Shown piece by piece: positions 6,820-41,839 of a DNA stretch of 41,839 bases. The stretch lies in IMG/VR virus record IMGVR_UViG_3300044962_000005, positions 1 through 41,839 of that record. One strand, given 5' to 3'. The position numbers and the translations under genes are program-made. The notes below the pieces were generated by a model that was not told the DNA's origin, ran no database searches, and saw only the letters and a list, made by a program, of their open reading frames with translations. Within the stretch, counting starts at the first letter, position 1. Every line of letters starts with the position of its first letter. The DNA is from a virus.

Positions 6820-7086
6820 TCAGTTCAGCGTTTCAATGCGTGTGGCTGGCCAGTGGCCGCGCTGTTCCAGCCCATCAACAACGTGCTGTCCGGCCGCGCG
6901 GATCATCGTCACGTCCGCTTCGCGCGTATGGCCTAACACGCTAAGCATGTCGGCCGCGCCGTGATAGCCGTCCCGCACGCCCTGCACGTAGGCCGAGCAG
7001 GTCAGCTGGCCTTGGAGTGCGGAAAGCTTCTGAATCTCTCCACGAAACAGCCAGCCAACGAGACGCATTCCCCACGATGGTCGCAT
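6820..7086 (-). CDS. Hypothetical protein (88 aa)
   Basis: ATG-initiated ORF in the operon. Confidence 0.6.
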   Translation of the reverse strand: MRPSWGMRLVGWLFRGEIQKLSALQGQLTCSAYVQGVRDGYHGAADMLSVLGHTREADVTMIRAAGQHVVDGLEQRGHWPATRIETLN

Positions 7087-7096
7087 GCCATTTCTC

Positions 7097-7420
7097 CTAA
7101 GGATTCTGATGATCCGGCTCCACGAGATACCGTCGCCACAACGCCCGAATCTTGAGCCACGTCCGCACCGTGATCCGAGTGTGCAACCGCACCCGCGCCC
7201 GTTTCAAGCCGAGCCGCTCGGCCACGTTCACCTGTTCCCGCTTCAACTGCTCGACTTTCCGTCTGGCATCCGTCGCACTGATGAGACTGCCTAACCGTCT
7301 GATGCCTTTCGCTTTATCTCTCGATCGGGCCGCTTCATACCTCGCATTCGCCGCGCGACAGGTCAAACATCGGCAGCCCCGTTTGTACTGGCGGCGTGTC
7401 CCATGCGCGTCGTCAGGCAT
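7097..7420 (-). CDS. DNA-binding protein with a HGTxxxYxxGCRCxxC motif
   Basis: HGTRRQYKRGCRCLTCRAANARY followed by a basic helical region. From memory, this motif recurs in phage DNA-binding proteins. Confidence 0.65.
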   Translation of the reverse strand: MPDDAHGTRRQYKRGCRCLTCRAANARYEAARSRDKAKGIRRLGSLISATDARRKVEQLKREQVNVAERLGLKRARVRLHTRITVRTWLKIRALWRRYLVEPDHQNP

Positions 7421-7426
7421 CGGTAA

Positions 7427-7687
7427 TCATTTCAGTGGTTTATACGAAATCTCCGTTGCGAGATACGGCCGATCCGGCAGCACCGAGAAGGACACGCGAC
7501 AGCCGGGCTGCAATTTCTCCGGCGTCGTGAAATCCCGATAGACATGCCCGAACAGCCAGGCGTAAATCCACCCACTATCGGCTCTCAGCACGCCTTGCAC
7601 GATGTCGAACCGTCGCACGCGCTGTTGATCGTCGGGCGCGTCCACATAGAAGAGGATCGTCCCCATCTGACGCATGTCGTCAGGCAT
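7427..7687 (-). CDS. Hypothetical protein (86 aa)
   Basis: ATG-initiated ORF; overlaps the upstream gene end by 8 nt. Confidence 0.65.
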   Translation of the reverse strand: MPDDMRQMGTILFYVDAPDDQQRVRRFDIVQGVLRADSGWIYAWLFGHVYRDFTTPEKLQPGCRVSFSVLPDRPYLATEISYKPLK

Positions 7688-7874
7688 CCGCGTGCCGATC
7701 CTTGAGTTTCAGGACATGGCTCAGCTTGACGCGTCGTCCACCCTGAATGATTACGTAGGGTAAGGATCCGTGCGCCATCCAGTAGTAAAGGGTGCGACGG
7801 GAAATGCCGGCGTGCTGTGCCGCTTGATCGAGATTCACGCGCTGAGAGGCAGGCATTTTCATGAACAATTTCAC
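7680..7874 (-). CDS. Excisionase-family / MerR-like HTH DNA-binding protein
   Basis: VNLDQAAQHAGISRRTLYYWMAHGSLPYVIIQGGRRVKL matches the HTH_17 pattern. GTGA overlap with the upstream stop; ATG alternatives lie 12 and 18 nt downstream. Confidence 0.7.
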   Translation of the reverse strand: MKLFMKMPASQRVNLDQAAQHAGISRRTLYYWMAHGSLPYVIIQGGRRVKLSHVLKLKDRHADA

Positions 7875-8266
7875 GAAGAGGTCTTCCCGCGCGTAATGGC
7901 TTCCTGCCCTATGTCATCGGCAGGAACTACCGCGAAAATCTCGTTCGAGACGGCTCCCCGCAACCGAATACCGAGATACTTGTCCGCCAACCACCCAATC
8001 GCCGCACGACGGGCCGGTGGCGACATCTGCTCAACGGCTTTCGCAAACCGGGCGAGCGCGTCGATTTCTGGGAACTGCCTCGGCTTCCGTCGGCGCGTCG
8101 GCGGGGCCGGTGGCAGGGCCGGCACAAGCGGCTCATCATCCACACGATCATCGGGCGGCTGCATGAAGAACAGTTTCTTCACCCGTTCTAATTCAGCGGC
8201 TTCCGTCTGAATGGTGTGCTCCGCTTCCCTGATGTTTCGGTCGGCGAGCGTTTCGTCGTCGTTCAT
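7871..8266 (-). CDS. Hypothetical protein (131 aa); its C-terminal ~20 codons come from a repeat copy
   Basis: ATG with GAGG upstream. The tail EIFAVVPADDIGQEAITRGKTSS is encoded by repeat copy 7888-7934. Confidence 0.7.
   Translation of the reverse strand: MNDDETLADRNIREAEHTIQTEAAELERVKKLFFMQPPDDRVDDEPLVPALPPAPPTRRRKPRQFPEIDALARFAKAVEQMSPPARRAAIGWLADKYLGIRLRGAVSNEIFAVVPADDIGQEAITRGKTSS
7888..7934 (-). repeat. Palindromic repeat element, family A, copy i (reverse orientation)
   Basis: Reverse complement reads CGCGGTAGTTCCTGCCGATGACATAGGGCAGGAAGCCATTACGCGCG. Confidence 0.85.
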
Positions 8267-8275
8267 CGCGTTACC

Positions 8276-9298
8276 TCAGTCCGGCAATGCGGTAGCTGGA
8301 TTGGTGGATGGATTCACAGGCTTTTCATTGCGCGCAAAAGACTTATCGTCGTTCTCTGTCGTCTCTCGCACGTCGTGGGGGGCGGCAGGGGCGCGCAGTC
8401 GATCAATTTCTGCGGCGATGAGCGCGCCAGCTTTCACGAGGTTCCGCCTCGGATCGTCGCTTGGCTTCCACCACTCCCAATCCCACGGCCACCCAGACGG
8501 CGCCGCGATGTGCTCTGCACGACTCTGCACCGTTCCGTCGGCTTGTCGCCTCGCCAGCGCGGCATAGCAACAAGCCGCCGCGACCATCTCGGCCTCGCGG
8601 TGAGTCTTATCGTGCGCCGCCGTCCAGCCTTCCGCGGTCTGTTGCCGCCGACGTTCCGCGGCAATCAGCGTGATGCCCTCCTCCTGGGCGGGGACCGCCG
8701 CGAGGGTCGAAGTCGTGTCAAAAGAAGCATTTGGCGCGCGTAGACCGCCTTCCCCTATCCCATCGACAGGATCTACCGCGGAGTCCGCGCCGGTGACCGC
8801 TCCCAACAACGCACGACGGACGTAACCGACGACATCAGCCGGACACGACACATGGCCATCAATGCCGCAGAGTCCGAAGATTTCCTGTAAGGCTTCATCC
8901 TGTGCACGCCATGCCGCTAAGAGGGCCTCCGCGTGTCGGCAGTTCAGGCTACAGCGTGGATCGCCCTGAAACTCCGCGACGAACGCGAGCGCACGCGCCA
9001 GATCCTCGACCGCTTGCACGCCGGGCGGCTGAGAGTTGTCTGGTTGTGGTTTACGCGGTAGATCCTGTCCGTCAGAGATGGCAGATCGGTCTACGCGCGA
9101 CAGATCGTCTTTATTTTCTTGAGGTTGGGGGGCGGGGACCGCAGGGGCGGCGATGTCTTTCACGGCGTCTAAGAGTGCGTTGAGTTCCGCGCCGCAGCGT
9201 CCGGAATGCTCAATGATCACGTCGCCATACGCTCGACGCTGAGCCTCACGATACGCAATGAACGCTAATCGCAGGCGACGAATCTCGTCCGGCTTCAC
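8276..9298 (-). CDS. Composite 340-aa ORF: three small-gene-sized segments joined in frame by repeat copies
   Basis: GTG 9298 overlaps the upstream stop as GTGA; an alternative GTG lies at 9346. Copies 9054-9099 and 8735-8780 are internal, and copy 8285-8345 encodes the C-terminus. The third segment carries EGWTAAHD...WPWDWEWWKP...RNLVKAGALIAAEIDRL. Confidence 0.65.
   Translation of the reverse strand: MKPDEIRRLRLAFIAYREAQRRAYGDVIIEHSGRCGAELNALLDAVKDIAAPAVPAPQPQENKDDLSRVDRSAISDGQDLPRKPQPDNSQPPGVQAVEDLARALAFVAEFQGDPRCSLNCRHAEALLAAWRAQDEALQEIFGLCGIDGHVSCPADVVGYVRRALLGAVTGADSAVDPVDGIGEGGLRAPNASFDTTSTLAAVPAQEEGITLIAAERRRQQTAEGWTAAHDKTHREAEMVAAACCYAALARRQADGTVQSRAEHIAAPSGWPWDWEWWKPSDDPRRNLVKAGALIAAEIDRLRAPAAPHDVRETTENDDKSFARNEKPVNPSTNPATALPD
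8285..8345 (+). repeat. Repeat element, family B, copy h
   Basis: CAATGCGGTAGCTGG...CAGGCTTTTCATTGCGCGCAAAAGACTT. By eye about three quarters identical to 11562-11620. Confidence 0.8.
8735..8780 (-). repeat. Palindromic repeat element, family A, copy a (reverse orientation)
   Basis: Reverse complement reads CGCGGTAGATCCTGTCGATGGGATAGGGGAAGGCGGTCTACGCGCG. Confidence 0.9.
9054..9099 (+). repeat. Palindromic repeat element, family A, copy b
   Basis: CGCGGTAGATCCTGTCCGTCAGAGATGGCAGATCGGTCTACGCGCG. Confidence 0.9.
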
Positions 9299-9459
9299 GT
9301 CCACAGCAGATCCTCCTCCGACAACTCCACCAGACGACGACGCCACCGATCCACCGCAGGCACCGGTAACGTCACCTTGCTCGACCGCTCAAACTTGATC
9401 GCGACGTCCATTTCGACCGCAAGTTGTTTGAGCGCCGTCCGTAATTCTTCTTTGGTCAT
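9295..9459 (-). CDS. Small hypothetical protein (54 aa), below the ORF-track size cutoff
   Basis: My own translation: MTKEELRTALKQLAVEMDVAIKFERSSKVTLPVPAVDRWRRRLVELSEEDLLWT. The ATG at 9459 abuts repeat copy c, and the stop overlaps the next GTG. Confidence 0.6.
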   Translation of the reverse strand: MTKEELRTALKQLAVEMDVAIKFERSSKVTLPVPAVDRWRRRLVELSEEDLLWT

Positions 9460-9507
9460 CGCGCGTAATCGCTCAAGTGGTCGCTCCCCTCGATTGGATC
9501 TACCGCG
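9460..9507 (-). repeat. Palindromic repeat element, family A, copy c (reverse orientation, intergenic)
   Basis: Reverse complement reads CGCGGTAGATCCAATCGAGGGGAGCGACCACTTGAGCGATTACGCGCG. Confidence 0.85.
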
Positions 9508-9538
9508 GAGTCCTCAACGAGAACGCTCCCGGCGTCCG

Positions 9539-9856
9539 TCACGAGCCGACCTGCTCGCCGTCCAACCAACGAAATTCGATGAGCGGAAAGTGCGCGTTGC
9601 ATCGGACACAAAACGTCGCGCCGTAGAACGACGGATCCCGCGCATACGTCTCCGACAGCGCCCGTCCCATCGTCGTCGTGGTGCCGCACGGTAGATGGGT
9701 GTACACGTCACGATAGGGTCGGATAAAGCCTTTCGCGCGTTCATCTGGGCAGAGCACGATGTAGCCGTCGTGTTGGCCCGTGGCGTTCGTCTGGCTCGCA
9801 CGCACTTCATCGACGGCCTTGCCGTTCGTCGTGCAGAGTTTCTGAGAATCGGTCAT
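9539..9856 (-). CDS. Hypothetical Cys-containing protein (105 aa)
   Basis: ATG 9856 is preceded by AAGGA at 8 nt spacing. An alternative TTG at 9862 overlaps the upstream stop. Confidence 0.65.
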   Translation of the reverse strand: MTDSQKLCTTNGKAVDEVRASQTNATGQHDGYIVLCPDERAKGFIRPYRDVYTHLPCGTTTTMGRALSETYARDPSFYGATFCVRCNAHFPLIEFRWLDGEQVGS

Positions 9857-9858
9857 GT

Positions 9859-10086
9859 TCAATGTCCTTCTGGCCCGACTTTCACGAAGACCGTATCTTT
9901 GACAGGCCCCGCACCGCGCTCAATCACGCGAATACGAAACCGCGCGTGCAACTGCTTGAGGTAGCGATCAGCCTTGGCGTCGTCTTCTACGACGAAGGCC
10001 ACGAGCGCGCCGCCGCTGGCCGCGTGCCCGATCGCGTCGATGCGCTCCTTCTCCGGCAACTCGAAGAGATCGGCGTAAATCGCCAT
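9859..10086 (-). CDS. Hypothetical protein (75 aa)
   Basis: ATG preceded by GGGAGA. Confidence 0.65.
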   Translation of the reverse strand: MAIYADLFELPEKERIDAIGHAASGGALVAFVVEDDAKADRYLKQLHARFRIRVIERGAGPVKDTVFVKVGPEGH

Positions 10087-10113
10087 GGTGACTTATCTCC
10101 CTCGGAGGTGTCT

Positions 10114-10158
10114 CGCGGTAGATCCTGTCGATGAAATAGTCGCAGAGGTCTACGCGCG
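10114..10158 (+). repeat. Palindromic repeat element, family A, copy d (intergenic)
   Basis: CGCGGTAGATCCTGTCGATGAAATAGTCGCAGAGGTCTACGCGCG. Confidence 0.9.
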
Positions 10159-10271
10159 CATAAGTCTGACGTTCTTCATCGTTCGTCGTCACGCCTCCTA
10201 CTGATCCCGTCGCGCGGGAGTCATCCCCCTAGAGTTCCAGAACGACGACGACGTGTTGGCGCGCGTGGCCA

Positions 10272-10457
10272 CTAGGGGTTCTCCTCAGGCCCTCGTACCG
10301 CAGCCTCCGACTGAGCTGATGCGGTACGTCCCTGAATCGCGCCAATGAACCACCCCCCAACTTGCACGCCAACGATGCGCGTCCAAATAAAACGGCGGTC
10401 GGCGACCAAATGCACCGTCACCGGTAAGGCCGAGAACCTAAAGTTGTAGACCGTCAC
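10272..10457 (-). CDS. Small hypothetical protein (61 aa, possible TM segment)
   Basis: GTG 10457 is preceded by AGGAG at 7 nt. Sequence includes IVGVQVGGWFIGAI. The start is uncertain. Confidence 0.4.
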   Translation of the reverse strand: MTVYNFRFSALPVTVHLVADRRFIWTRIVGVQVGGWFIGAIQGRTASAQSEAAVRGPEENP

Positions 10458-10491
10458 CGCACCGCTCCTATCGCCCGTAGCGCCGACGTAA

Positions 10492-10791
10492 TCAAAAGGC
10501 CGTCTCCTGACGTGGCCGCAATCCCGCCGGCAGTTCCAGCCCGACGGCAATCAACGCCTCGTCCAATGTCCGAACGATCACTGCATGGCCTCGCCAGAGC
10601 GCCAGGAACGCCTCCTGTGACGGGCGGACCTTCCCCTTGGCCGTCTTCACCTCCAACAGATACGTGCGCCCCTGACGCCCCACAATCAAATCTAAGGGGC
10701 CTCCCGAATAGACCGAGCACCCGCGCGCTTTCAGGCCATCCCGGATCGTCCGGTGATTCGAGTCGAGCTGATGAACGACGTACTTCCCCAT
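10492..10791 (-). CDS. VRR-NUC-like PD-(D/E)xK nuclease
   Basis: 99 aa with GGPLDLIVGRQGRTYLLEVKTAKGKVRPSQ, which fits the D...ExK pattern and the VRR-NUC size. Confidence 0.7.
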   Translation of the reverse strand: MGKYVVHQLDSNHRTIRDGLKARGCSVYSGGPLDLIVGRQGRTYLLEVKTAKGKVRPSQEAFLALWRGHAVIVRTLDEALIAVGLELPAGLRPRQETAF

Positions 10792-10845
10792 CTACATCCT
10801 GACGGGCTGGGCGGCCATCCTCATGACAGAATCCGATCGAAAAGA

Positions 10846-11124
10846 TCATTCATCGCGCGTCGCACCTTCCTGCCTCTCCGTTGCGACGATTGGATCTACC
10901 GCGTCAGAAGCCGGTGACTCATCCACCTCCTGCAACGCACGGCACAAACGACAACGGAACGGCCCGACCAACTTTGCCTCGCCGTTAACGAACGCAATCC
11001 ACACCTGCTCCCACTCATGCGGGCATTTGCCATGCGTACAGTCAGGACAGCACACGCGGCCTTGTCGTTTCCAGTCGTCACAGGAGCTTTTTACGGCCCC
11101 GCATCCGCCGCATGTTTCTTTCAA
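10846..11124 (-). CDS. Cys-rich small protein (92 aa); its C-terminal ~20 codons come from a repeat copy
   Basis: CGGCG...CCPDC...CPHEW...CRLC. TTG start overlaps the upstream stop as TTGA. The tail SDAVDPIVATERQEGATRDE is encoded by repeat copy e. Confidence 0.6.
   Translation of the reverse strand: MKETCGGCGAVKSSCDDWKRQGRVCCPDCTHGKCPHEWEQVWIAFVNGEAKLVGPFRCRLCRALQEVDESPASDAVDPIVATERQEGATRDE
10854..10903 (-). repeat. Palindromic repeat element, family A, copy e (reverse orientation)
   Basis: Reverse complement reads CGCGGTAGATCCAATCGTCGCAACGGAGAGGCAGGAAGGTGCGACGCGCG. Confidence 0.8.
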
Positions 11125-11342
11125 CGCAGAACCTCACTCGTTACTTCAATCGGATGATCGCCATACCAGCCCGCGCAGTCTTCGCAGATGTAGACCTGAT
11201 CGAAGCAGAGACTATCGAGCATCCGCACCTCGCGCGGATCCGTATCGGGCGGAAGATCGCGCATCCGTTTCAGCACCATGAAGACCCGGCCGTTCGGCGT
11301 GAACTCGTCAAGGCAATCCTCGCAACGAGACGTACTGATCAT
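11121..11342 (-). CDS. Small Cys-rich protein (73 aa, CEDC...CEDC)
   Basis: Start taken at ATG 11342 (MISTSRCEDC...). The longer ORF N-terminus overlaps the upstream gene. Confidence 0.55.
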   Translation of the reverse strand: MISTSRCEDCLDEFTPNGRVFMVLKRMRDLPPDTDPREVRMLDSLCFDQVYICEDCAGWYGDHPIEVTSEVLR

Positions 11343-11535
11343 CAGCGTCGACCTCGCGAATGTCTCCCGGCGACACGTAGCACCCATCGGTGCCGTGCTG
11401 GCAGTGCTCCAACTTCACCAGCGCCATGTGATTGCCGAGCACGTTGATCGTCTCGCCGGTGAATCGCCCGTACTCGCCACGATGCGGATGATCCTTGCCG
11501 ACAATCTTGACGCGCGGCGGTGTCGTCGTTTTCAA
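11308..11535 (-). CDS. Hypothetical protein (75 aa)
   Basis: TTG start with GGAGG 4 nt upstream. Confidence 0.55.
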   Translation of the reverse strand: MKTTTPPRVKIVGKDHPHRGEYGRFTGETINVLGNHMALVKLEHCQHGTDGCYVSPGDIREVDADDQYVSLRGLP

Positions 11536-11561
11536 CGGACCTCCGAATGACTCCGAACCGT

Positions 11562-11620
11562 CAATGCGGTAGCTGGGACGGTGTGATGACTCTCAGGCTC
11601 TGCATTGCGCGCAAAGTCTT
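11562..11620 (+). repeat. Repeat element, family B, copy g
   Basis: CAATGCGGTAGCTGG...CAGGCTCTGCATTGCGCGCAAAGTCTT; partner of 8285-8345. Confidence 0.8.
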
Positions 11621-11695
11621 CTGTCTCTTGAATTTTCGTCGTTCATGCCGCGTCATCCTCGCCTGGCGCACGACCGAATAGCTGAGAAGGCGCAG

Positions 11696-11823
11696 GCGTT
11701 GCAGAGTGCAACGGTGTTTTCTCTGTTTCTCGGACGGTTGCAGCAACCTCTCTCCTAAAGGAGAGAGAGAGGTTTTGCGCTGCGACCGTTGCAAATTGCG
11801 CTTTTGCCGTTGCAGGTTGCAAC
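11696..11823. promoter_or_regulatory. Iteron cluster plus GA/CT hairpin: candidate replication origin or regulatory array
   Basis: (C)CGTTGCA occurs at 11696, 11734, 11786 and 11807, and inverted at 11707. The palindrome GTTGCAAC lies at 11816. A hairpin CCTCTCTCC-TAAA-GGAGAGAGG spans 11747-11772. No convincing ORF. The array lies directly downstream of the replication ATPase gene. Confidence 0.5.
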
Positions 11824-11827
11824 GCGC

Positions 11828-13075
11828 TCATGACTGATCCGCTAGCCCGATGCGCCCATCGGCCAATCGGAGAAACGTCCCACTCTTCCGCTTCACTTCC
11901 GTGCGGATGGTCGAGGCGGTGGTCTTGAGCATCTCGGCGAGTTCGTCAGTGGGCATGGCCCCATGTTTCAGGAGGTAGTGCATCCGCTGAGCAACTGGGA
12001 GTTTCGCCGCCAGCTCGTCGTGCGCCACAATCTCGGTCGGGCGTATCTGGGTTGCCGTGCCAAGGAATTCCATCCGCTCTCCGAAGGGCCGCCGCAGCCG
12101 CCCGACATTGGATTTGCGGTGATAGAACCCCACTGTTAGACCGTCTCCCCCTTCTTCCGCGTCGGTGCGTTTGAGATACCAGGTGCTCCGGGCGCCATTG
12201 GCCCAGAACACACTCCCGAAGGGCTTTTGATCGCCTTGTTCGGCTTTACTGATGTGGGCGAGATGCAGACTCCCCATCTGGCCGAGTTCCCGCAAGGCCC
12301 GAAAATAACCGGTGGCCGCTTCGGCGGATTCGGGTGCCCCTTCCGCCGCGAACCCGAGCGAGTCGCAGATGAGGAACGTGATCCGCCGGTGGGCGACGAT
12401 TTCTTTGAGCCGCCCGACATCCCGGACAAAGGGCCGATCGCACCGTCGATAGAACAACTGCTCGAGATGTGGAACCGGTCCTGCGAGCCGATGCAGCCGC
12501 CGCCGATGGTCATCCCCGGCAAATTCCCAATCGCAGTAGAGAACGCGTTCTCCCCGCTGCGCAAGGTCCACCGCGGCTGACAACGCGAGATAGGACTTCC
12601 CGCAGCCACCGTCTCCGAACCAGATCGTCGGATGACGCCGGAGAACGGGCAGACCGCCCGCGTCCATCTCGGACTCAAGCTCGTCATCAATCGGCACCTG
12701 CTCGAGCGGCCGTTCCGGGTCGCCCTGGTCTTCCGCCGAGAGCACCTGTAGGCACAGCTCCTCCAGGAGCCCCACCCAGTCGATGTCCTCGGCGCGTGTC
12801 CGTTCCCGCAGAAACTTCGCCCGTTCCGATCGGGACCGTTGCCCGGAACAGTTGAAGTCGGCACTGGAGACGATGTTGTCGGCGACGGTCTGGGCGCCGC
12901 GGAACGTCACCCGCACCGTCAGGAGGCCGATCGTTTCCTGATGCTCCCGCCGGATCCGCGTCACATCGAAGCGGATCCCGCTCTGCGGCAGCGACAAGCG
13001 ATACCCGATCCCGGGCACCGCGTGCCAATCGTGTGGACCCGATGGCATCGTGCCACCGGGCGTCGGTCCCGCCAT
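11828..13075 (-). CDS. RepA/AAA_25-like RecA-superfamily replication ATPase (helicase-type) with a C-terminal wHTH-like tail
   Basis: Walker A GDGGCGKS, Walker B-like ITFLICDSLG, and LAHISKAEQ. 415 aa. Confidence 0.8.
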   Translation of the reverse strand: MAGPTPGGTMPSGPHDWHAVPGIGYRLSLPQSGIRFDVTRIRREHQETIGLLTVRVTFRGAQTVADNIVSSADFNCSGQRSRSERAKFLRERTRAEDIDWVGLLEELCLQVLSAEDQGDPERPLEQVPIDDELESEMDAGGLPVLRRHPTIWFGDGGCGKSYLALSAAVDLAQRGERVLYCDWEFAGDDHRRRLHRLAGPVPHLEQLFYRRCDRPFVRDVGRLKEIVAHRRITFLICDSLGFAAEGAPESAEAATGYFRALRELGQMGSLHLAHISKAEQGDQKPFGSVFWANGARSTWYLKRTDAEEGGDGLTVGFYHRKSNVGRLRRPFGERMEFLGTATQIRPTEIVAHDELAAKLPVAQRMHYLLKHGAMPTDELAEMLKTTASTIRTEVKRKSGTFLRLADGRIGLADQS

Positions 13076-13081
13076 CCACGG

Positions 13082-13390
13082 TCACCGTCCTTGTCCCGGG
13101 TCGCACTTCATCAGGGCGCGGATCTGTTGCGCCTGATCGGCTAACCTCGCGTTTTGTTGCTGGACCAACGCGGTCAGGACCGAGACGCGGTCAAGAGCTC
13201 GATGCACCAGCTCACGCGTGGTCGTGAGGTCCGCTTGCACGGACGACAGATGCGCCTCTTGCTCGACGTAATCGGCGTACAACAGCCCGAGCAGATCCGG
13301 CGTGGATGGCTCGAGCGTTGAGGATCGAACAGTCAGCTGGACCGGCGGCAGGCCCCACAGAATATCGTCGGAATAGAAGTCGTCCGCCAT
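13082..13390 (-). CDS. Hypothetical coiled-coil protein (102 aa)
   Basis: ATG-initiated ORF in the operon. Confidence 0.65.
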   Translation of the reverse strand: MADDFYSDDILWGLPPVQLTVRSSTLEPSTPDLLGLLYADYVEQEAHLSSVQADLTTTRELVHRALDRVSVLTALVQQQNARLADQAQQIRALMKCDPGQGR

Positions 13391-13503
13391 CAGTCAATCC
13401 GTCGATCGCGCCACGCGTCACTGATCCAGCGATCCGAGACGCGGTTGATCGGCACGTGCCAGTCGTGCCACCAGCGACTCAACGCCAGCAGCCAGCGGGT
13501 CAC
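13390..13503 (-). CDS. Tiny Trp-rich ORF (37 aa)
   Basis: My own translation: (M)TRWLLALSRWWHDWHVPINRVSDRWISDAWRDRRID. GTGA overlap upstream and TGATG overlap downstream. Confidence 0.35.
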   Translation of the reverse strand: MTRWLLALSRWWHDWHVPINRVSDRWISDAWRDRRID

Positions 13504-13673
13504 GAGGCTTTCTCGTCCACTTTCTTCACCGCTCGCGGTTTGGCACGTTTGACCGTCCGCTGTTCTCGCAGTCGGTCAATGATGTCCTTCGTGCTCTCCA
13601 CCGCGCGTTGGTGCATTTCCAGTTCAAGCTCGTACTGTCGAATGACCTTGTCGAGCGCGCTCTGCTTCGCCAT
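13500..13673 (-). CDS. Small coiled-coil protein (57 aa), below the ORF-track cutoff
   Basis: My own translation: MAKQSALDKVIRQYELELEMHQRAVESTKDIIDRLREQRTVKRAKPRAVKKVDEKAS. TAATG overlap with the upstream gene. Confidence 0.55.
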   Translation of the reverse strand: MAKQSALDKVIRQYELELEMHQRAVESTKDIIDRLREQRTVKRAKPRAVKKVDEKAS

Positions 13674-14134
13674 TACGCCGCCTCTTTAAATTTCAACAGA
13701 AGATCCCCATTGAGATACGGCTTCCCGTTCACCGTGAACATTTGCGCCGCCGTCCCCACGACGTGGAGACGAACCCCACGCCCATGTAACCGTTGATGAT
13801 CCCGAAGACACACCCAAATCCCGTTCCGCACATCGACCCTGACCGCCTTGTCGGCGCGCCCTTTGAGGTGGTGGGCTTCGCCGCGCTTTGGGACACGGTC
13901 GAGGGTGGTGAGGGTGCGGACGCCGCAGACCCGACAACAGCCCTGGTCGCGAGCCTTGACGTCTTTGGCCCACTGGAGGAGGTGCTTCGCGTCGTCTTTC
14001 CCATCGGCGACTTTCTGATCGAGTCGGGTCTGCGTCGACTTCCAATTCGGCCGCGACGCACGGTCTGCTTGAACTTCGGCGAGCGTGGGCAACTGTCTCA
14101 GTGCAGTCATAAAGGCAAAGTGTGTATCTGGCAA
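13673..14134 (-). CDS. HNH-domain nuclease
   Basis: CCRVCG...GEAHHLKGR...NGIWVCLRDHQRLH fits the HNH fold pattern. Confidence 0.7.
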   Translation of the reverse strand: MPDTHFAFMTALRQLPTLAEVQADRASRPNWKSTQTRLDQKVADGKDDAKHLLQWAKDVKARDQGCCRVCGVRTLTTLDRVPKRGEAHHLKGRADKAVRVDVRNGIWVCLRDHQRLHGRGVRLHVVGTAAQMFTVNGKPYLNGDLLLKFKEAA

Positions 14135-14151
14135 CCGCCCGCTTCAGACTT

Positions 14152-14781
14152 TCAGGCGGCGGCCTGTTGGCGCGACCGGAGATACCCGTCCAGGCCCTTC
14201 GCCGTCACGTACTCGACAAACCGCCCAAGCAACCGACCACAGTCCTCGTGCAATGCGGCGTACGGATACAGATCAAAGCTGTGAATCGCTTTCACCTCGA
14301 CCACGCTGTTGCCGTGGTCGTCGAGCTCGAAGACGTGATAGGTAATCCGCGACGGCTCGAAAATATCCGTCATGAACCGCCACTGGCAGGAATCGGCGTA
14401 CTTGTCGAAATCGAAGGTCGAACTCGTGGTTTTGAACTCGCTCAGATGCGCGCCGAGTAAATGATCAGCTTTAGCCACCACGTCATGCGGGCCGTAGGCT
14501 TTCGTAGCCTTGGCTTCAAAGACGCCGCGCCGATCGATGAGGGCGAGCGCCGGCGCCATCGTCGCGTCGGAAAAGGCATAGTCGTGGTGGTGAAAGCCCC
14601 CGGGCACTTCGTAGCTGTCGGGATCCTCGAGCACCTCGCCGAACGCCTTCCCGAGCAGGACCGCTGGCGTCGGCACGAACTTGCCGCAGATGGTGTCGAT
14701 CAAGGACTGCTCGGTCATCCACTCCTGATCGGGCTGCATGAACAGGCGGAACGATTCGAGCGTCGTCGTGCTGATTCTCAC
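14152..14781 (-). CDS. PD-(D/E)xK (RecB/Cas4-like) exonuclease
   Basis: VVAKADHLLGAHLSEFKTT gives D...ExK, followed by a QWRFM (QxxxY-like) motif. GTG 14781 overlaps the upstream stop as GTGA. Confidence 0.7.
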   Translation of the reverse strand: MRISTTTLESFRLFMQPDQEWMTEQSLIDTICGKFVPTPAVLLGKAFGEVLEDPDSYEVPGGFHHHDYAFSDATMAPALALIDRRGVFEAKATKAYGPHDVVAKADHLLGAHLSEFKTTSSTFDFDKYADSCQWRFMTDIFEPSRITYHVFELDDHGNSVVEVKAIHSFDLYPYAALHEDCGRLLGRFVEYVTAKGLDGYLRSRQQAAA

Positions 14782-15695
14782 GCCGTCCGCTCCACCGGCT
14801 GCGGCAGACTGAAGGCTTTCGCCGCCGGACTCCAGACCAACCCGAGTGCCTTCGCGCGGTCGTTCAACAGCTTCTTCACCTGCGGCGCCGTGGTCGCGTT
14901 CAACTTGGACACTTCCGGAATGGCCGCGTTGATCTCCTCCGGCGCCTGGAACGTGTCGATCGCCGTGCGCCAGTCGTCCACCGCGGCGGCCACCTTCGCG
15001 CTCTGGCCGGAGATCGCCCCGAGCGCGGCCCGCCCGGTGACGATCAAATCCGCGAGCACGGTCTGCGCTTTGGCGACTGGCGGCACGGTGAGCGGCGCCC
15101 AGCCCGCCGGGTTCTTCCCGATCCATTTGTCGGTCGGATTGAAATCGAGCACCCGCTGCTTCCCGCTCATCGCGAGATACCCGACGAAGTCGGACACCTT
15201 CATGACTTCGGCATACGAACCACCGGTGATGTCCGGCCGCACGCTCTTGCTGTCGGCGTCGCCTTCTTCTTTGTCATGGGCGATGAGCACGACGTCTTTG
15301 CCGAGTGTCCGTAGCAGCGCAATCCAGAGCCGGAAGCGCGCTTTGAGGACGCCGTAGCCCTGGAGGCTGAGATTGCCGTCCCGCCCGAGTTTCGGATTGC
15401 CGGCGATGATGTCGGTCGACATCAGATCGAGGCAGCGGCCCACGGTGTCCACGACGATCGTCTGATACGGTGCGAGCGCCTCGACATGCTCGGTCAGTTC
15501 CGTGACGTCGGCCCACGTCCCAATCTGCAAGGTATCGCGCCGGTTCGCCGCCCGATGGGCGCCATTGTCGAAATCGAGGAGGAGCGGATCAGCGGCGGAA
15601 TACCCGAGGGACGACTTCCCGATCCCCGGCTGGCCGAAGATCATGAACACCGGATGCTGAACTTCGATCGCGTCGGTCGACTTGATAATCTTCAC
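14778..15695 (-). CDS. Sak4-like AAA_24 recombination ATPase
   Basis: VFMIFGQPGIGKSSLG is a Walker A motif and IVVDTVG is Walker B-like. GTG 15695 follows AAAGGA. The ORF-track start at 15773 adds an unconvincing N-terminus. Confidence 0.8.
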   Translation of the reverse strand: MKIIKSTDAIEVQHPVFMIFGQPGIGKSSLGYSAADPLLLDFDNGAHRAANRRDTLQIGTWADVTELTEHVEALAPYQTIVVDTVGRCLDLMSTDIIAGNPKLGRDGNLSLQGYGVLKARFRLWIALLRTLGKDVVLIAHDKEEGDADSKSVRPDITGGSYAEVMKVSDFVGYLAMSGKQRVLDFNPTDKWIGKNPAGWAPLTVPPVAKAQTVLADLIVTGRAALGAISGQSAKVAAAVDDWRTAIDTFQAPEEINAAIPEVSKLNATTAPQVKKLLNDRAKALGLVWSPAAKAFSLPQPVERTA

Positions 15696-15835
15696 GAATG
15701 CAGTCCTTTCGCGGGGTGGTCGACACGGGTTCTGTTCCAGGCCGCGGCCACTGGCACGCGTCCCAATAGTCACAATCGCTCTCAGCGCTCCATCGGCTCA
15801 TCGTCTGGTCCCCGGCTCGTGGATCGCCACCGCTG

Positions 15836-16234
15836 TCATTCCGCACCGTTGGTCGCGATGAAGTGATCGATCCGCTCCGCCGCGATCTGCGCTTTCTCGG
15901 CGCACGATTGAGCATCCTCGTACGCATCGATAAATCGATCAGGCCAATGATCTGACAGGAACAAGCGACTCCGTTCTGTTCTGTCGTCCAAGCTGTCATC
16001 AGCGACGTCAGCACTGAGATCCAAGAGGCGTGCGGCAACCACGTCTGGATTGCGTCCATCTTCGAGAGCCTGATAGCAGGCGTCTTCGTCAGGGTTCGCA
16101 ATCTTGAGCCCATTTAATACGAGCGCCCATCCGCCAATACAGTGCGCCGTTCCGCAGCTCCACGTATCCATGCGGAAGGCATCCGGCTCCGCGAGAATGT
16201 GCGTCTTAATCTTTTTGAGCAGGCTCACGTTCAT
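15836..16234 (-). CDS. Hypothetical protein (132 aa)
   Basis: ATG 16234 is preceded by GGGAG at 7 nt. The ORF stays open to 16444, so a 202-aa form is possible. Confidence 0.6.
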   Translation of the reverse strand: MNVSLLKKIKTHILAEPDAFRMDTWSCGTAHCIGGWALVLNGLKIANPDEDACYQALEDGRNPDVVAARLLDLSADVADDSLDDRTERSRLFLSDHWPDRFIDAYEDAQSCAEKAQIAAERIDHFIATNGAE

Positions 16235-16468
16235 CGTCGGCTCCCGCCCTTCGCCTGGGCGCGCACGAACAGTGATGGCATCTGGCCGGTTCTGACCCGG
16301 CTCGGACCTTTGGGCATCTTCCTCTCGGCTTTCGCCGCCGTTGTGTGGCCCGACGATTTCGCCGCGTGGCCTGAGAATCAACAACCGACTGGCTACGGTC
16401 TCATTCAGGACGCACTCGGTTCCGCCTTCAGGGCGTGTCACCATCCACGCCGCAGATGCCGTGCTCGT

Positions 16469-16690
16469 TCATCGTCGTGGCCCCTTCGCCTGGGCGCGCC
16501 GCTGGGCCATGTCCCCCTGTAACTGCTCAAGGGCTTTCGCGTGCGCGACGTCCACGCGTCGCTGCCACCGATCTTGCATCCAATCGAGCGTGTAGGTGAT
16601 CGCCAGGAGCGCGAGCGCGATCCCGCCGATGATCAAGATCCAATTCGCGGCGTTGATCGCTTCCGTGGAGGTCGGCCAGACATGACTCAT
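16469..16690 (-). CDS. Single-pass membrane protein (73 aa)
   Basis: TM segment WILIIGGIALALLAITYTL. ATGA overlap with the upstream stop. Confidence 0.65.
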   Translation of the reverse strand: MSHVWPTSTEAINAANWILIIGGIALALLAITYTLDWMQDRWQRRVDVAHAKALEQLQGDMAQRRAQAKGPRR

Positions 16691-16944
16691 ACAGTTTTCT
16701 CGCGTTCCGCGATCATGGCGTCGGCGATCTCGTAAGCCATCCGTGCGACTGTTGGCGTGTCCTTTGGTGAGCCCACGCGAATCATCCGGCCGATCAGGGT
16801 TAGCGCCTGCCCGGCGAAGTAGTCCCGTAGCGACATGCCGTTGTGCCGATGCGGCAACGCATGATCTGGAAACGCCGGCCCGCCGTCGGCATTGAGCCGC
16901 TTCAACGTGTCGGCCTGAATCTGTTCGGCGGTGCGATAGCTCAC
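16687..16944 (-). CDS. Hypothetical protein (85 aa) with a GMSLRDYFAGQAL motif
   Basis: GTGA overlap with the upstream gene. From memory, this motif recurs in phage proteins of unknown function. Confidence 0.65.
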   Translation of the reverse strand: MSYRTAEQIQADTLKRLNADGGPAFPDHALPHRHNGMSLRDYFAGQALTLIGRMIRVGSPKDTPTVARMAYEIADAMIAEREKTV

Positions 16945-17285
16945 GCGATCCTCTTGATGGTGATGGCGGTGCTCACGTCCACCTGTCGTAACCGCTGTTT
17001 GGCAATCGCGAGGATCAATTCGATCCAGAACTCATCCGACAGATCCCACAACCGATGAAAGCTGAGATGGTCCACGCTCTTGAGCCCACGTAACACCAAC
17101 GAATGACTGATGCCCATGTCGGCGGCCATCGCCTTCGCTTCTAGGCGAACAATGCCGCGCGCCATATCGAGGACTTCGCCCGCCGTCGGGTTCAATTTCC
17201 GAACCGGCGTTTCGCCACGGCGGAGTTCCGCCTTCGCATTGCGAAGTGGAATCTCGGCGAGCCGCTCGTTACCCTTGCTGTCCAT
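16941..17285 (-). CDS. Putative HTH regulatory protein (114 aa)
   Basis: Start taken at ATG 17285 (MDSKGNERL...). AKAMAADMGISHSLVLRGLK looks like an HTH. Confidence 0.55.
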   Translation of the reverse strand: MDSKGNERLAEIPLRNAKAELRRGETPVRKLNPTAGEVLDMARGIVRLEAKAMAADMGISHSLVLRGLKSVDHLSFHRLWDLSDEFWIELILAIAKQRLRQVDVSTAITIKRIA

Positions 17286-17292
17286 GAACGTG

Positions 17293-17430
17293 TTACCGGT
17301 CCTCGAACAGCAATTCCACCGGTTGCGACGCGAGGAGGATGGCGTGCAAACCCCGTTCAAACGGACTCGGGAAGCCGAGCGTCACCCATTTGCCGGTGTC
17401 GGTGTACTTGACGTGAATGATGTATTTCAT
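17293..17430 (-). CDS. Small hypothetical protein (45 aa), below the ORF-track cutoff
   Basis: My own translation: MKYIIHVKYTDTGKWVTLGFPSPFERGLHAILLASQPVELLFEDR. It fills the gap between two genes. Confidence 0.55.
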   Translation of the reverse strand: MKYIIHVKYTDTGKWVTLGFPSPFERGLHAILLASQPVELLFEDR

Positions 17431-17433
17431 GGG

Positions 17434-17781
17434 TTACTGCCCTTCCGCGTGTGCGAGCAACGGTTCGTCGCAGACCCACTCCACGATCTCGACTTCGCGC
17501 TCAGGCTTCGCGGGTTCGACGCGCGTGCCGGTCACGACTTTGCGGCAGACGGTGGCGCGATCAGTGAAGACCTGCAACTCGACGTCGCCCGCGAACATGC
17601 GCGAGAGATGGAAATAGTCGTCGCTGTAGACCTTGCGCCAGCCGCCCAGCCGCGCCATGTCCGCGAGCAGCTCCCGCGATTGCACGTAGACCAGATGCGT
17701 CGGCGTGCTCAATTCGATCGCGGGATGGGCGTCGAGAAAATCGGCCAACTCGCGCAACCCTTTCGAGACATCAGCGTTCAT
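17434..17781 (-). CDS. Hypothetical protein (115 aa)
   Basis: ATG-initiated ORF abutting the upstream stop. Confidence 0.7.
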   Translation of the reverse strand: MNADVSKGLRELADFLDAHPAIELSTPTHLVYVQSRELLADMARLGGWRKVYSDDYFHLSRMFAGDVELQVFTDRATVCRKVVTGTRVEPAKPEREVEIVEWVCDEPLLAHAEGQ

Positions 17782-17991
17782 TCAGTGACTCCTCACCGCT
17801 TGCGCGGCGACTTGGATCTGGACAATCGCGATCAGTTGCGGATCCGCGTCCCGTCGCCAGCGGGTGTGCCCGCGCAACGCTTTCTTCACGACGGTGAGCG
17901 AGTGCCACGACGTTTGACAGAGCGGACACGTCCCGCGGCCATCCGCATTCGGGGGCACGATCAAGCCGGAGGCTTCGCACAGGAACCGCAT
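17782..17991 (-). CDS. Small hypothetical protein (69 aa)
   Basis: ATG-initiated ORF; carries CEASG...CPLC. Confidence 0.6.
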   Translation of the reverse strand: MRFLCEASGLIVPPNADGRGTCPLCQTSWHSLTVVKKALRGHTRWRRDADPQLIAIVQIQVAAQAVRSH

Positions 17992-17994
17992 GGC

Positions 17995-18465
17995 TTACTG
18001 CCCTTCCGCCTTGGCGATCACGATCGAGGCGGCGTCCAGTGCCTTGGCGTTGATGTCGGAGAAATCTCCCGAGGCCGCGACGAGGGCCGCGAGACGGAAC
18101 GACGTTTCCTTCAGCGCCGCAAGCAGATCAGGAGCCGCCGCGATCAGGCTCGCGTCGGCTTCTTTCTGTGGGTACGGTCGATCGGCTCGACGCGGCAGTA
18201 CAGCAACGGTCACTGTCTCGACGAGACTTTCGATCGCGGCACCGTTGACGGACGTCCCGCTGTGGAGCCGAACGCCCCACGGCCCAGGCGTATGCGCGAC
18301 GTTCTTCGTGACCGACATCGAGAGCCTTTCCGTTGCGGAGTTCGCGGTAGTTCCTGTCGCGGGGCGCGACGACTGACGGTCTACGCGCGGGAGATTCTTC
18401 TCTGCCCTGACGATCTCGACACTCGCGTAGGGCACGACTTCTGGACGGAGGAATTTCGGGATCAT
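17995..18465 (-). CDS. Phage protein with a TPGPW...ASLIAAAPDLLAAL domain; a repeat copy is inserted near its N-terminus
   Basis: ATG 18465 overlaps the upstream stop as ATGA. An internal alternative start at ATG 18318 (MSVTKNV) follows GGAAAGG. Codons 23-42 are encoded by repeat copy f. Confidence 0.65.
   Translation of the reverse strand: MIPKFLRPEVVPYASVEIVRAEKNLPRVDRQSSRPATGTTANSATERLSMSVTKNVAHTPGPWGVRLHSGTSVNGAAIESLVETVTVAVLPRRADRPYPQKEADASLIAAAPDLLAALKETSFRLAALVAASGDFSDINAKALDAASIVIAKAEGQ
18343..18389 (+). repeat. Palindromic repeat element, family A, copy f (outlying copy)
   Basis: CGCGGTAGTTCCTGTCGCGGGGCGCGACGACTGACGGTCTACGCGCG. Confidence 0.85.
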
Positions 18466-18599
18466 GCCGCGCTCCTCGCATCGAGATCGGCATGGAGCGT
18501 CGCGCTGCACCGGGGGCAGAGGCTGTGCGTCGTCGTGCCGGCCGGGCCAGGCTTCTCCCCCATCGCGGCGCCGCACCATGAGCAAAAAATCTTCATCAT
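18462..18599 (-). CDS. Small zinc-ribbon protein (45 aa), below the ORF-track cutoff
   Basis: My own translation: MMKIFCSWCGAAMGEKPGPAGTTTHSLCPRCSATLHADLDARSAA, with CxxC...CxxC. Confidence 0.55.
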   Translation of the reverse strand: MMKIFCSWCGAAMGEKPGPAGTTTHSLCPRCSATLHADLDARSAA

Positions 18600-18601
18600 G
18601 G

Positions 18602-18811
18602 TTAGGCGCTCCGCCGTTGGGTGAGGCTGATCGCGCGATCCAGATCGGTCTTTTTGATGAGCAGCGTTCTGAACCGCCGGGCCGTCGGGACGCCTTTGGC
18701 TTTGATAAAGCGGTAGAGACTCCGTAAGGCGTTCGGGCCACGGTATTTCAGGTACGCGGCCGCTTCGTCGGTGCGGAAGAGCGGACCTTTGAAGTCGAAG
18801 GCGTCGCTCAT
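18602..18811 (-). CDS. Excisionase-family / MerR-like HTH protein (69 aa)
   Basis: FRTDEAAAYLKY...LIKKTDLDRAI matches the HTH_17 pattern. ATGA overlap with the upstream gene. Confidence 0.6.
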   Translation of the reverse strand: MSDAFDFKGPLFRTDEAAAYLKYRGPNALRSLYRFIKAKGVPTARRFRTLLIKKTDLDRAISLTQRRSA

Positions 18812-19014
18812 GACGCTACCGCCAGCGGGAACAGCTCGCCGACCGGCTTCCGCAGCACTTTCGCGATCAGTTTTCGTTCGACGTCGCTGGCCTCGACGTG
18901 ACCGCGGACGATTTTGCTGAGCCGACTCTCCGGAATGCCGGTCTTCTGGGCCACCGAGAGTTGCGTGGTGCCACTGTCAAAGATGACGGACTTGAGCGTG
19001 GTGTTTCGGGCCAT
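18808..19014 (-). CDS. Cro-like XRE-family HTH regulator, first gene of the early operon
   Basis: TTQLSVAQKTGIPESRLSKIVRG is an HTH. The gene is divergent from the plus-strand HTH gene and lies directly downstream of a strong promoter. Confidence 0.75.
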   Translation of the reverse strand: MARNTTLKSVIFDSGTTQLSVAQKTGIPESRLSKIVRGHVEASDVERKLIAKVLRKPVGELFPLAVAS

Positions 19015-19029
19015 ACGTTTCGTGGAAGA

Positions 19030-19058
19030 AATATATCGTGATAGGAATCACGAGTCAA
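19030..19058 (-). promoter_or_regulatory. Early leftward sigma70-type promoter
   Basis: The minus strand reads TTGACT, a 17-nt spacer, then TATATT. The ATG at 19014 lies 15 nt after the -10 box, so the leader is very short and lacks an SD. Confidence 0.6.
19036..19053. promoter_or_regulatory. Palindromic operator inside the promoter spacer
   Basis: TCGTGAT-AGGA-ATCACGA has 7-bp perfect arms. It is flanked by related half sites, TTCGTGGA at 19019-19026 and TTCACGAA at 19067-19074. Confidence 0.6.
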
Positions 19059-19075
19059 CAACTAGTTTCACGAAG

Positions 19076-19104
19076 TTGTGACAGGTGGAAATCTGGCCTA
19101 TTTC
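19076..19104 (+). promoter_or_regulatory. Weaker rightward promoter candidate for the repressor-side operon
   Basis: TTGTGA, a 17-nt spacer, then TATTTC. The -35 box abuts the TTCACGAA half site. Confidence 0.35.
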
Positions 19105-19144
19105 CGCAACTTTTGATGCCGAGAGCCTGCTACGGTGGCAGGCG

Positions 19145-19690
19145 ATGGACACAAACGAGGCCCTGAGGCAACAGGCATTGCGTCTCGTCAAGTTGGGGGT
19201 GAGTCAGAAGATCGTCGCCGCGAAGATGGGCATGGCGCCCAGCACGTTCAGTAAGTGGCTCAATCGGAAGAGTGGGATCGGGCCGGCGTCGGTCGTCGCG
19301 TTGGATCGGTTCAACCGCTACCTGCAGGAATTATCGAGCGCGCTGGACAGCACGGTTTTGCAGGCCGATGTCTCAAGCTCGCACACCGCCACTCCTGTCA
19401 TGGCGGGAACGCCTGAGAAACAGGTCGGCATGAACGGCCGACCGCTTGCAACTTCCTCAGCTACCCCGCTCCCTCCTCATGGCCAAGCTGCTCCCGTATC
19501 CGGCGCACCGCGTCAGACGTACGGCCAAACACGTACTGGCATTGAGCACCTCATACGAGACGGCGAAGCTGCAGAAGCCCAAATCCTGGAAGAACAGGCC
19601 CGTCCCACCCCAATCCATCGGAAACATGTTGCAGCGCCTCCTTCTAAAACGGCCCATCGCCGTGCTCGTGCTCGAAAACATCATCGCTGA
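19145..19690 (+). CDS. HTH DNA-binding protein, candidate lysogeny repressor (no S24 peptidase domain seen)
   Basis: VSQKIVAAKMGMAPSTFSKWLNRK is an HTH. The C-terminal half is low-complexity and basic. ATG 19145 is preferred over GTG 19085, which lies upstream of the predicted promoter. Confidence 0.65.
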   Translation: MDTNEALRQQALRLVKLGVSQKIVAAKMGMAPSTFSKWLNRKSGIGPASVVALDRFNRYLQELSSALDSTVLQADVSSSHTATPVMAGTPEKQVGMNGRPLATSSATPLPPHGQAAPVSGAPRQTYGQTRTGIEHLIRDGEAAEAQILEEQARPTPIHRKHVAAPPSKTAHRRARARKHHR

Positions 19691-41807: not shown

Positions 41808-41839
41808 TTCTTCGGGCGTTTCGTGACTGCTCTGGAGCT
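41713..41839. repeat. Terminal direct repeat, identical to 1-127
   Basis: Base-by-base comparison with the first 127 nt. Confidence 0.97.

Follow-up and report, generated by a model that had tools for sequence, protein, structure and literature searches.

A paired and inverted repeat element at gene junctions of uncultured soil phages, a candidate boundary of exchangeable gene cassettes

It is a long-running question whether phages shuffle their genes via conserved linkers, or only through random illegitimate joins that are then selected. This question is raised by a family of short repeats in the IMG/VR virus record IMGVR_UViG_3300044962_000005, a stretch of 41,839 nt called the window hereafter. 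A first-pass annotation of the window had described seven related copies of about 46 bp at gene junctions, in both orientations, and had offered three explanations for them: an element resembling MITEs (miniature transposable elements with inverted repeats) or repetitive extragenic palindromes (REPs), cassette-boundary linkers, or a multi-copy hairpin or binding site. We describe here a clade-specific nucleotide element which sits at gene junctions in an alternating inverted layout and in fixed register to starts and stops, and whose H boxes (defined below) bound slots of differing gene content. Judging from the comparison of sequences, we favour, with moderate confidence, the reading that the copies are cassette-boundary elements where genes may be exchanged. 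The window is a circularly closed assembly, with an exact 127-bp direct terminal repeat (1-127 = 41713-41839), of a phage genome of ~ 41.7 kb with a G+C content of ~ 62%, and its minus strand carries nearly all genes.

Each copy is composed of an H box, CGCGGTAGATCC (core GCGGTAG), a variable spacer of 22-25 nt and a T box, (G)TCCACGCGCG, the two boxes being imperfect inverted copies of one motif of ~ 11 nt. The whole element measures 46 nt in 122 copies and 47 nt in 81 copies. The T box of the window lineage, GGTCTAC, is unusual and unusually symmetric, most relatives having GTCCAC. The pattern CGCGGTAGN{25,40}ACGCGCG matches the window exactly seven times, versus 0.02 copies expected from dinucleotide shuffles; the coordinates and orientations of the seven copies were all verified, and this shuffled-sequence control gives no support to a chance family. 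Two additional diverged copies of the same family, g1 and g2, were first seen as a 58-nt direct repeat. They form a G-subtype (head GCGGTAGCTGG, tail CATTGCGCG) which is also present beside canonical copies in eight other loci. Around the copies, symmetry extends ~ 15 nt outward (purine-rich AAGACGATYWGT) and ~ 25 nt inward, and on the side of the gene end the inward part corresponds to the ribosome-binding region in decayed form. In the window the H and T boxes were found only within elements with no enrichment outside, and a Chi-like or genome-wide motif was rejected on this ground.

The key feature, overlooked by the first-pass annotation, is the alternating inverted-pair architecture of these copies. 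Indeed, along the gene strand of the window they follow each other in the order g2, e, d, c, b, a, g1, i, and these eight alternate without exception throughout the accessory region between the replication and the packaging genes. As successive junctions carry the element in alternating orientation, each gene or small gene group is flanked either by two inward H boxes or by two inward T boxes. The same layout is observed family-wide, in copies drawn from 73 IMG/VR stretches and at least 120 stretches from JGI and other metagenomes. After removal of duplicates, 83 pairs of neighbours are inverted versus 13 direct (p = 1e-13), and 63 of the inverted pairs have their H boxes inward, with a spacing from 144 to 900 nt (median 394 nt). 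The two repeats of one pair are no more alike than non-partners (spacers, p = 0.21), which rules out both a long-range full duplex and repeats derived together within a pair. Of the 17 cases that could be scored, 15 have the bracketed gene in the same orientation as its neighbours, the two exceptions being weak calls, and a shufflon or invertible segments were rejected since no inverted cassette was seen among those 17. Furthermore, no target-site duplication was found at the pairs, the outer flanks being inverted-symmetric and not direct repeats.

What, then, changes between related phages at these pairs? Among 6150 between-locus copy pairs, 6104 share nothing beyond the element, 33 share one flank only and 13 share both flanks, the latter being duplicate contigs; outside duplicates, flank similarity is one-sided in 33/33 cases. 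Three independent slots could be compared between related loci (numbered with the prefix L): L009/L024/L303, L209/L260 and L023/L047, the first one with three alleles, hence five pairwise comparisons. In these slots the repeats are 83-98% identical, spacers included, and the outer flanks 66-91% identical. The interiors are unrelated and differ in length (144/685/395, 377/769 and 421/830 nt respectively), and at every junction read only 0-20 nt separate the end of similarity from the inner H-box edge. Moreover, L012 and L038 share a homologous gene (~ 80% nucleotide identity) whose upstream copy has an identical H box and an unrelated spacer, the downstream copy being present in just one of the two phages. 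Together, these comparisons indicate that the repeats belong to the slot and that the open reading frame (ORF) between the H boxes changes. The H-flanked unit is thus a slot in which repeats and outer flanks stay while the enclosed ORF is replaced by unrelated ones among related phages, and the presence of unrelated genes between the same pairs marks the elements as edges of exchangeable gene slots. Differences within the repeats cluster in the mid and H-proximal spacer, which is generally the least conserved part, and are not decisive for a central crossover. The linker proposal of the first-pass annotation therefore holds in so far as inverted pairs enclose unrelated genes and similarity ends at the H boxes, but not in the likening of the copies to the promoter-early stem-loops (PeSLs) of T4-type phages.

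The position of the element relative to the bracketed genes, usually one gene per H-flanked pair, was examined in 28 strictly defined cassettes. In 26 of them the start codon lies 17-27 nt past one H box, and in 25 the opposite H box is crossed by the ORF in a single frame, reading (D)AVDP. The ORF stops at +37 in 12 of the 28, on the TGA of the T-box variant TGACC, a variant carried by 10 of 20 3' copies versus 1 of 20 5' copies (p = 0.003). Since 3' copies are read through in one frame and stop at TGACC, unrelated proteins share a common tail encoded by the element. On the other side, an ORF preceding a 5' copy usually extends across it, whichever the frame, and its stop follows after 9-30 nt, beside the next start. 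A ribosome-binding motif, GGAGATAAGTGAC, often precedes this start, with 9 of 15 distinct occurrences located 10-13 nt past an H box.

At least 254 distinct copies were collected in at least ~ 180 phage contigs from soil and rhizosphere, the habitats from which the metagenome stretches mostly come. Those contigs share with the window the large terminase TerL (~ 65% identity, 12 loci), the portal (16 loci) and other structural genes, and hence represent one phage group. A scan of 596 Gb of genomes was dominated by chance singletons; of the 105 listed stretches that were compared with the element profile, two matched convincingly, and both lie on short contigs of metagenome-assembled genomes (MAGs), which may be phage. 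Nothing similar to the element or to the window junctions was found in GenBank phages, and the closest cultured phages have a TerL identity below 50%. The proteins flanking the window copies have no homologues in the other element-bearing loci, and relatives of the window helicase share none of its small genes. Among these helicase relatives, L195 (IMGVR_UViG_3300032954_000031; helicase 52% identical) has zero copies in 15 kb and L196 (57% identical) has two element pairs. No tRNA was found when one was looked for toward host identification, and literature searches returned no description of this element. The group is one of uncultured temperate phages of soil and rhizosphere, to which the elements are specific.

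If the copies are cassette boundaries, recombination within the conserved junctions would exchange genes between co-infecting phages or prophages, and the phage's own Sak4-like annealing protein and nucleases would probably assist this exchange. Given that neighbouring copies are inverted, intramolecular recombination would not delete the gene, and this may be the reason why inverted neighbours survive. The element would double as a standard expression connector, its 5' copy being fixed 17-27 nt before the start codon, and its 3' copy being translated as a common C-terminal tail and supplying the stop codon. Several points weigh against such an account. The boxes are far more conserved than the spacer, which homologous recombination alone does not predict, and copies with different spacers are continuously identical over only 11-12 nt, a short length for annealing proteins. 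Three slots make a small sample, and cassette replacement is inferred from the comparison of contigs with ~ 90% identity in the flanks, no recombination event having been seen directly. The element-free L195 indicates that the elements are dispensable for this phage type. Finally, no recombinase or transposase besides the integrase was found among the ~ 30 window ORFs scanned; this sole recombinase is a phage-type tyrosine integrase located ~ 9 kb from the elements. A stronger version, which we put forward only tentatively and hold to be rather unlikely, is that the elements are cis sites of a dedicated phage gene-cassette system, a viral counterpart of integrons or dif modules, with a sequence-specific phage or host factor acting on the boxes. 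If this were true, a universal connector would let any ORF drop into any slot with frame, stop and translational coupling ready-made, and absent stops, as in the three-module ORF of the window described below, would give in-frame domain fusion.

In the window itself, the bracketing can be followed pair by pair along the gene strand. The first pair is g2/e, with g2 (11565..11611, plus strand, G-subtype) as its 5' repeat, ending 29 nt upstream of ATG 11535, and e (10854..10903, minus strand) as its 3' repeat, encoding the last codons (DAVDPIVATERQEGATRDE*) of gene 10846-11124; the slot between them (10846..11535, minus strand) holds three small cysteine-rich ORFs. An unbracketed interval between e and d carries a VRR-NUC-like nuclease gene (10492..10791, minus strand), which is the most recurrent neighbour of the element in other contigs (28 loci). 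In the next pair, the H box of the 5' repeat d (10114..10158, plus strand) ends 27 nt upstream of ATG 10086, with the ribosome-binding site GAGGGAGATAAGTCACC in between, and the 3' repeat c (9460..9507, minus strand) is intergenic, its T box abutting ATG 9459. The two genes of this slot (9539..10086, minus strand) encode 75 aa and 105-107 aa. The last pair is g1/i. Its 5' repeat g1 (8288..8334, plus strand, G-subtype, TGCGGTAGCTGG...CATTGCGCG) ends 21 nt upstream of ATG 8266, and its 3' repeat i (7888..7934, minus strand), which runs from H to T on the gene strand, encodes the last codons (AVVPADDIGQEAITR...) of gene 7871..8266 (minus strand, 131 aa, no family match).

The pair b/a differs in that both repeats are translated in frame within one ORF. 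The 5' repeat b (9054..9099, plus strand, read as SRVDRSAISDGQDLPR) and the 3' repeat a (8735..8780, minus strand, read as SAVDPVDGIGEGGLRA) lie inside the modular ORF 8276..9346 (minus strand, JGI call of 342 aa from 9304), and the segment between them (8781..9053, minus strand), the middle module of this ORF, is without its own ribosome-binding site or start. In this ORF, copy b separates module 1 from module 2, copy a separates module 2 from a promiscuous C-terminal domain, and copy g1 follows as the C-terminal tail. With a, b and g1 all in one called ORF, the tolerance of in-frame copies claimed by the first-pass annotation is real, and the positions it gave relative to genes for a, b, c, d, e and i stand as well. 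Elsewhere the C-terminal domain is fused to many different N-termini, its homology starting right after copy a; the homologues match this domain only, and no orthologue without the copy turned up. Hundreds of phage proteins carry this domain of ~ 120 residues (WPWDWEWWKP...LVKAGALIAAEIDRL) at their end or in their middle; PF04447, PF04448, PF16473 and PF14354 are among the Pfam hits precomputed for them, and Pfam has no match to the domain itself.

Copy f (18343..18389, plus strand) stands alone in 5'-type orientation, ~ 27 nt upstream of the likely start 18315 of a phrog_1273-like gene. It had been placed inside an ORF, but in ORF 17995-18741 the match to the phrog_1273 profile (103 positions) is confined to residues 146-248, downstream of f, and a 45-aa zinc-ribbon ORF (18599-18462) lies upstream, so that f is probably not inside a gene but between two. 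This minus-strand zinc-ribbon ORF, absent from the ORF list, has two CxxC pairs (MMKIFCSWCGAAMGEK...CPRCSATLH...). On the replication side of the accessory region are a helicase-like gene (11828-13075) and the gene of the Sak4-like single-strand annealing protein (14778..15773, minus strand), which could be the catalyst of exchange at short conserved junctions. Among relatives, the commonest neighbours of the element are nucleases, namely VRR-NUC-like ones and, both named by motif recognition only, HNH and DUF1064-like ones. In the same way, bracketed proteins of 230-270 aa with TIYHGD...DPPY(G), typical of DNA methyltransferases, were recognised by motif only in L015/L196 (6830-7601), L047 (7798-8719) and L062 (2290-3169), and slots may hold anti-restriction cargo.

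Other conserved blocks, from 35 to 120 nt, also bound replaced segments, and some of them comprise a ribosome-binding site, the start and the first ten codons; this phage group has a general habit of conserved junctions. A ribosome-binding site, ATG and ~ 10 codons (MPRTPAPLT, MSESRPP, MSEPDDTPTRL) are conserved at the nucleotide level before otherwise unrelated genes adjoining T boxes, as in L023 (7969-8006 and 6497-6541), L019 (3517-3554), L009 (4041-4088) and relatives, and in L024 one such start opens a mini-ORF of 24 codons which ends inside a 5' copy. Another block, ATCAGCGCGGGCAGCGCCACGAAGGCGCGGGCATCGGCTTCC, of 42 nt, recurs at 91-100% identity in 12 loci, its surroundings being unrelated on both sides (L019 3399-3446, L024 5958-6001, L047 6235-6274, L039 6713-6760 and eight more loci). 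In the window, a 32-nt repeat (17428-17459 / 17989-18020, 84% identical) lies where two adjacent genes of the minus strand end, spans stop, spacer and next start (CATGGnTTACTGCCCTTCCGC), and represents a second type of gene-junction repeat. Immediately outside a 3' copy, an insertion or duplication of ~ 69-87 nt sets apart the otherwise identical contigs L025 (9301-9439) and L059 (6328-6396). Two tandem units of 63 nt, 71% identical, are found within a structural-region ORF (37187-37312).

Could the same layout be produced by something other than gene exchange? The alternative that survives best, although we consider it doubtful, is a signal acting on RNA. Within a long early transcript, the 5' copy of a gene would be joined to its 3' copy by base-pairing of the H boxes (12 bp) and of the T boxes (11 bp), or individual copies would fold alone, and each cistron would thereby be closed off for processing (RNase III-like, as at rRNA stems), for protection from exonucleases (REP-like) or for translational coupling, cassette exchange then being a by-product of conserved signals. 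The geometry of the cassettes speaks for such a signal. The 5' copy keeps a fixed distance from ribosome-binding site and start, H boxes are always toward the bracketed gene, a constant spacer length in elements of 46 or 47 nt would hold two helices in register, and the upstream ORFs that cross a 5' copy usually end 9-30 nt beyond it. About half of the 5' copies form a stem-loop just upstream of a free ribosome-binding site. When folded as RNA, four of the seven copies of the window clearly exceed their shuffles in stability (z -2.4 to -3.6), which c, e and f do not (z -1.8, +0.35 and -0.9 respectively). Over 106 distinct copies of relatives the mean z is -1.1 in the reverse orientation, with 25/106 below -2, but only -0.3 in the forward one. 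The alifold consensus structure of these 106 copies is a trivial CGCG/CGCG pair, and a conserved hairpin was ruled out by the shuffle tests and this consensus. The first-pass view of each copy as a hairpin-forming palindrome hence applies to four window copies but not to the family. Nor do the boxes covary, since they are invariant instead of compensating, and their variants are unmatched in the partner or within the copy; the partner spacers are not complementary, and many copies are partnerless within the DNA stretch read. Folds of 14 5' copies showed no consistent pairing of the H box with the ribosome-binding site, and sequestration of the latter was rejected. No Rfam family matches the copies, one weak chance match being found elsewhere in 7000-19500, and no sigma-70 promoter-like site was found in 7000-13500 versus 1.7 expected. 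The copies have no terminator-like tail: terminator-like sites show no excess (8 found versus 4.9 expected) and none spans any copy, the single match inside copy d (10154-10141) being a 5-bp stem.

A less probable alternative is that the copies are DNA-binding sites, a two-box operator through which a phage or host protein (repressor, nucleoid or replication protein) would control or insulate early accessory genes, on the model of stoperators or, in Cluster K mycobacteriophages, of the extended start-associated sequences (ESAS). Indeed, two inverted boxes are strictly conserved about a free spacer of fixed length, they occur in the window only inside elements and are associated with gene starts, like the start-associated sequences (SAS) and ESAS, and the window encodes helix-turn-helix proteins. 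Strict boxes about a free spacer imply a sequence-specific reader, either a protein or RNA pairing with a standardised partner. To this extent the idea of a multi-copy hairpin or binding site keeps its second half, whereas its hairpin is not conserved. However, ~ 35 bp separate the box centres, an unusual distance in a dimer operator, the orientation alternates and half of the copies sit on the 3' coding ends of genes. Moreover, no conserved candidate binding protein was found, and the operator reading alone does not explain the slot polymorphism. Both the RNA-bracketing and the operator readings remain live, and neither is exclusive of a role in recombination.

More improbable again is a selfish mobile element, in which the copies would be terminal inverted repeats of non-autonomous transposons with a passenger gene, or in-frame palindromes of the REP type or of the type of Rickettsia palindromic elements (RPEs), the transposase being elsewhere. 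Inverted pairs around short segments, the GTAG in the head as in REPs, open translation in both orientations (a, b and g1 in one called ORF) and the absence from L195, which makes the elements dispensable, would all fit. What does not fit is the behaviour of the repeats, which show no target-site duplication between their inverted-symmetric flanks, resemble their partners no more than other copies, stay with the slot while the cargo changes, differ functionally between 5' and 3' copies (stop codon) and are fixed within a few nucleotides of starts and stops. Furthermore, no transposase was found among the window ORFs scanned, and the genome matches amount to the two convincing ones, on short MAG contigs that are possibly phage, among the 105 listed stretches checked. 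The MITE/REP-like proposal of the first-pass annotation thus finds no support, the interiors being, in addition, unrelated protein genes. An ordinary coding motif or a chance family, which would draw on the common tail (D)AVDP... translated in fixed frame from 3' copies and on a GC-rich sequence where open frames are cheap, has a negligible probability and is refuted by the counts: 0.02 copies are expected by chance, many copies measure 46 nt and many 47 nt, gene arrays running in a single direction contain copies of either orientation, the rare head codons GTA and GAT (CTA on the opposite strand) are kept unchanged across copies, and the carrier and neighbouring genes are non-homologous.

Returning to cassette boundaries as the preferred reading, this clade offers nucleotide-conserved, standardised junctions with clear slot polymorphism at them, which makes the linker route of gene shuffling directly testable. 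The boxes also provide a cheap marker for accessory-gene slots in soil viromes, and the elements suggest natural landing pads for phage engineering.

How do these elements compare with known systems? REP/BIME elements and REPINs, mobilised by RAYT transposases, and RPEs are imperfect palindromes of small size that occur in either orientation, frequently as doublets of inverted copies. REPs have GTAG near the head, fold into tight short-loop hairpins and occur as hundreds of extragenic chromosomal copies together with a RAYT gene, and RPEs are tolerated in frame inside genes. The elements described here share the GTAG near the head and, with a, b and g1, the in-frame position within one ORF. 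Unlike in REPs, the hairpin is not conserved and the doublets enclose whole genes, and the window ORFs scanned yielded no Y1 transposase. Where REPs populate chromosomes, the copies here were seen in phage contigs, besides the two matches on MAG contigs that may be phage. Integron cassettes are promoterless single ORFs with unrelated cargo, each with one imperfectly palindromic attC, all of them oriented alike; this site is built of R/L boxes with extrahelical bases and depends on IntI and attI. A conserved imperfectly palindromic boundary site and unrelated cargo are common to both, but the sites here are paired and inverted, without R/L boxes with extrahelical bases, IntI or attI. The attC reading was ruled out by the paired inverted sites and by a phage-type integrase being the only one present. 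MITE, REP/RAYT, attC and shufflon each fail at least one defining feature tested.

Among phage systems, the SAS/ESAS of Cluster K mycobacteriophages are clade-specific repeats of unknown function that immediately precede the start codons of many genes without mutual homology (PMC3203893). ESAS are imperfect inverted repeats with 17-bp arms and a 4-13-bp spacer, followed by the ribosome-binding-site motif GGGATAGGAGCCC, and nearly all have one orientation (PMC3203893). The 5' copies here are similarly placed, with GGAGATAAGTGAC and a fixed position before starts (17-27 nt past the H box in 26/28). They differ by their alternating orientation, arms of 11-12 bp, spacer of 22-25 bp, unrelated sequence and the inverted partner that sits where the gene ends, and no cassette polymorphism is reported for ESAS, unlike for the elements here. 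PeSLs are short junction motifs, composed of a sigma-70 promoter and a terminator stem-loop, in the hyperplastic accessory regions of T4-type phages (PMC2839356). They bound insertions, deletions and replacements between related phages, with modular shuffling by inter-motif recombination, and exchanges between nearby PeSLs give mini-circles (PMC2839356), which we take to mean that PeSLs act as direct repeats. As with PeSLs, conserved junction copies here bound replaced accessory genes in three slots. In contrast to them, our copies have no promoter or terminator consensus and no conserved hairpin, form inverted pairs and are partly translated.

The dif modules of Acinetobacter plasmids are discrete gene modules between inversely oriented two-armed pdif sites, which delimit alternating C and D modules (PMC13141974). 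Each pdif is 28 bp long, with two 11-bp Xer-binding arms and a 6-bp spacer (PMC13141974). In both cases inversely oriented sites alternate along the replicon, giving two module classes (here H-flanked and T-flanked), and the same backbone carries different modules in different relatives. Unlike the 28-bp pdif, the elements here are 46-47 bp long with arms of 11-12 bp and a spacer of 22-25 bp, and a comparison by eye with the E. coli dif, made without alignment or search, showed no likeness. Furthermore, no Xer dependence is claimed here, no inversions were seen among the 17 scorable cassettes, the replicon is a phage genome, and the sites both overlap the ends of coding sequences and keep a fixed distance to starts. 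The site design is unmatched among the families compared, whereas the alternating inverted layout parallels that of the poorly understood dif modules, but in a virus, and this layout principle may be more general. Among the systems compared, dif modules are the closest to these elements in architecture, and PeSLs the closest in evolutionary outcome.

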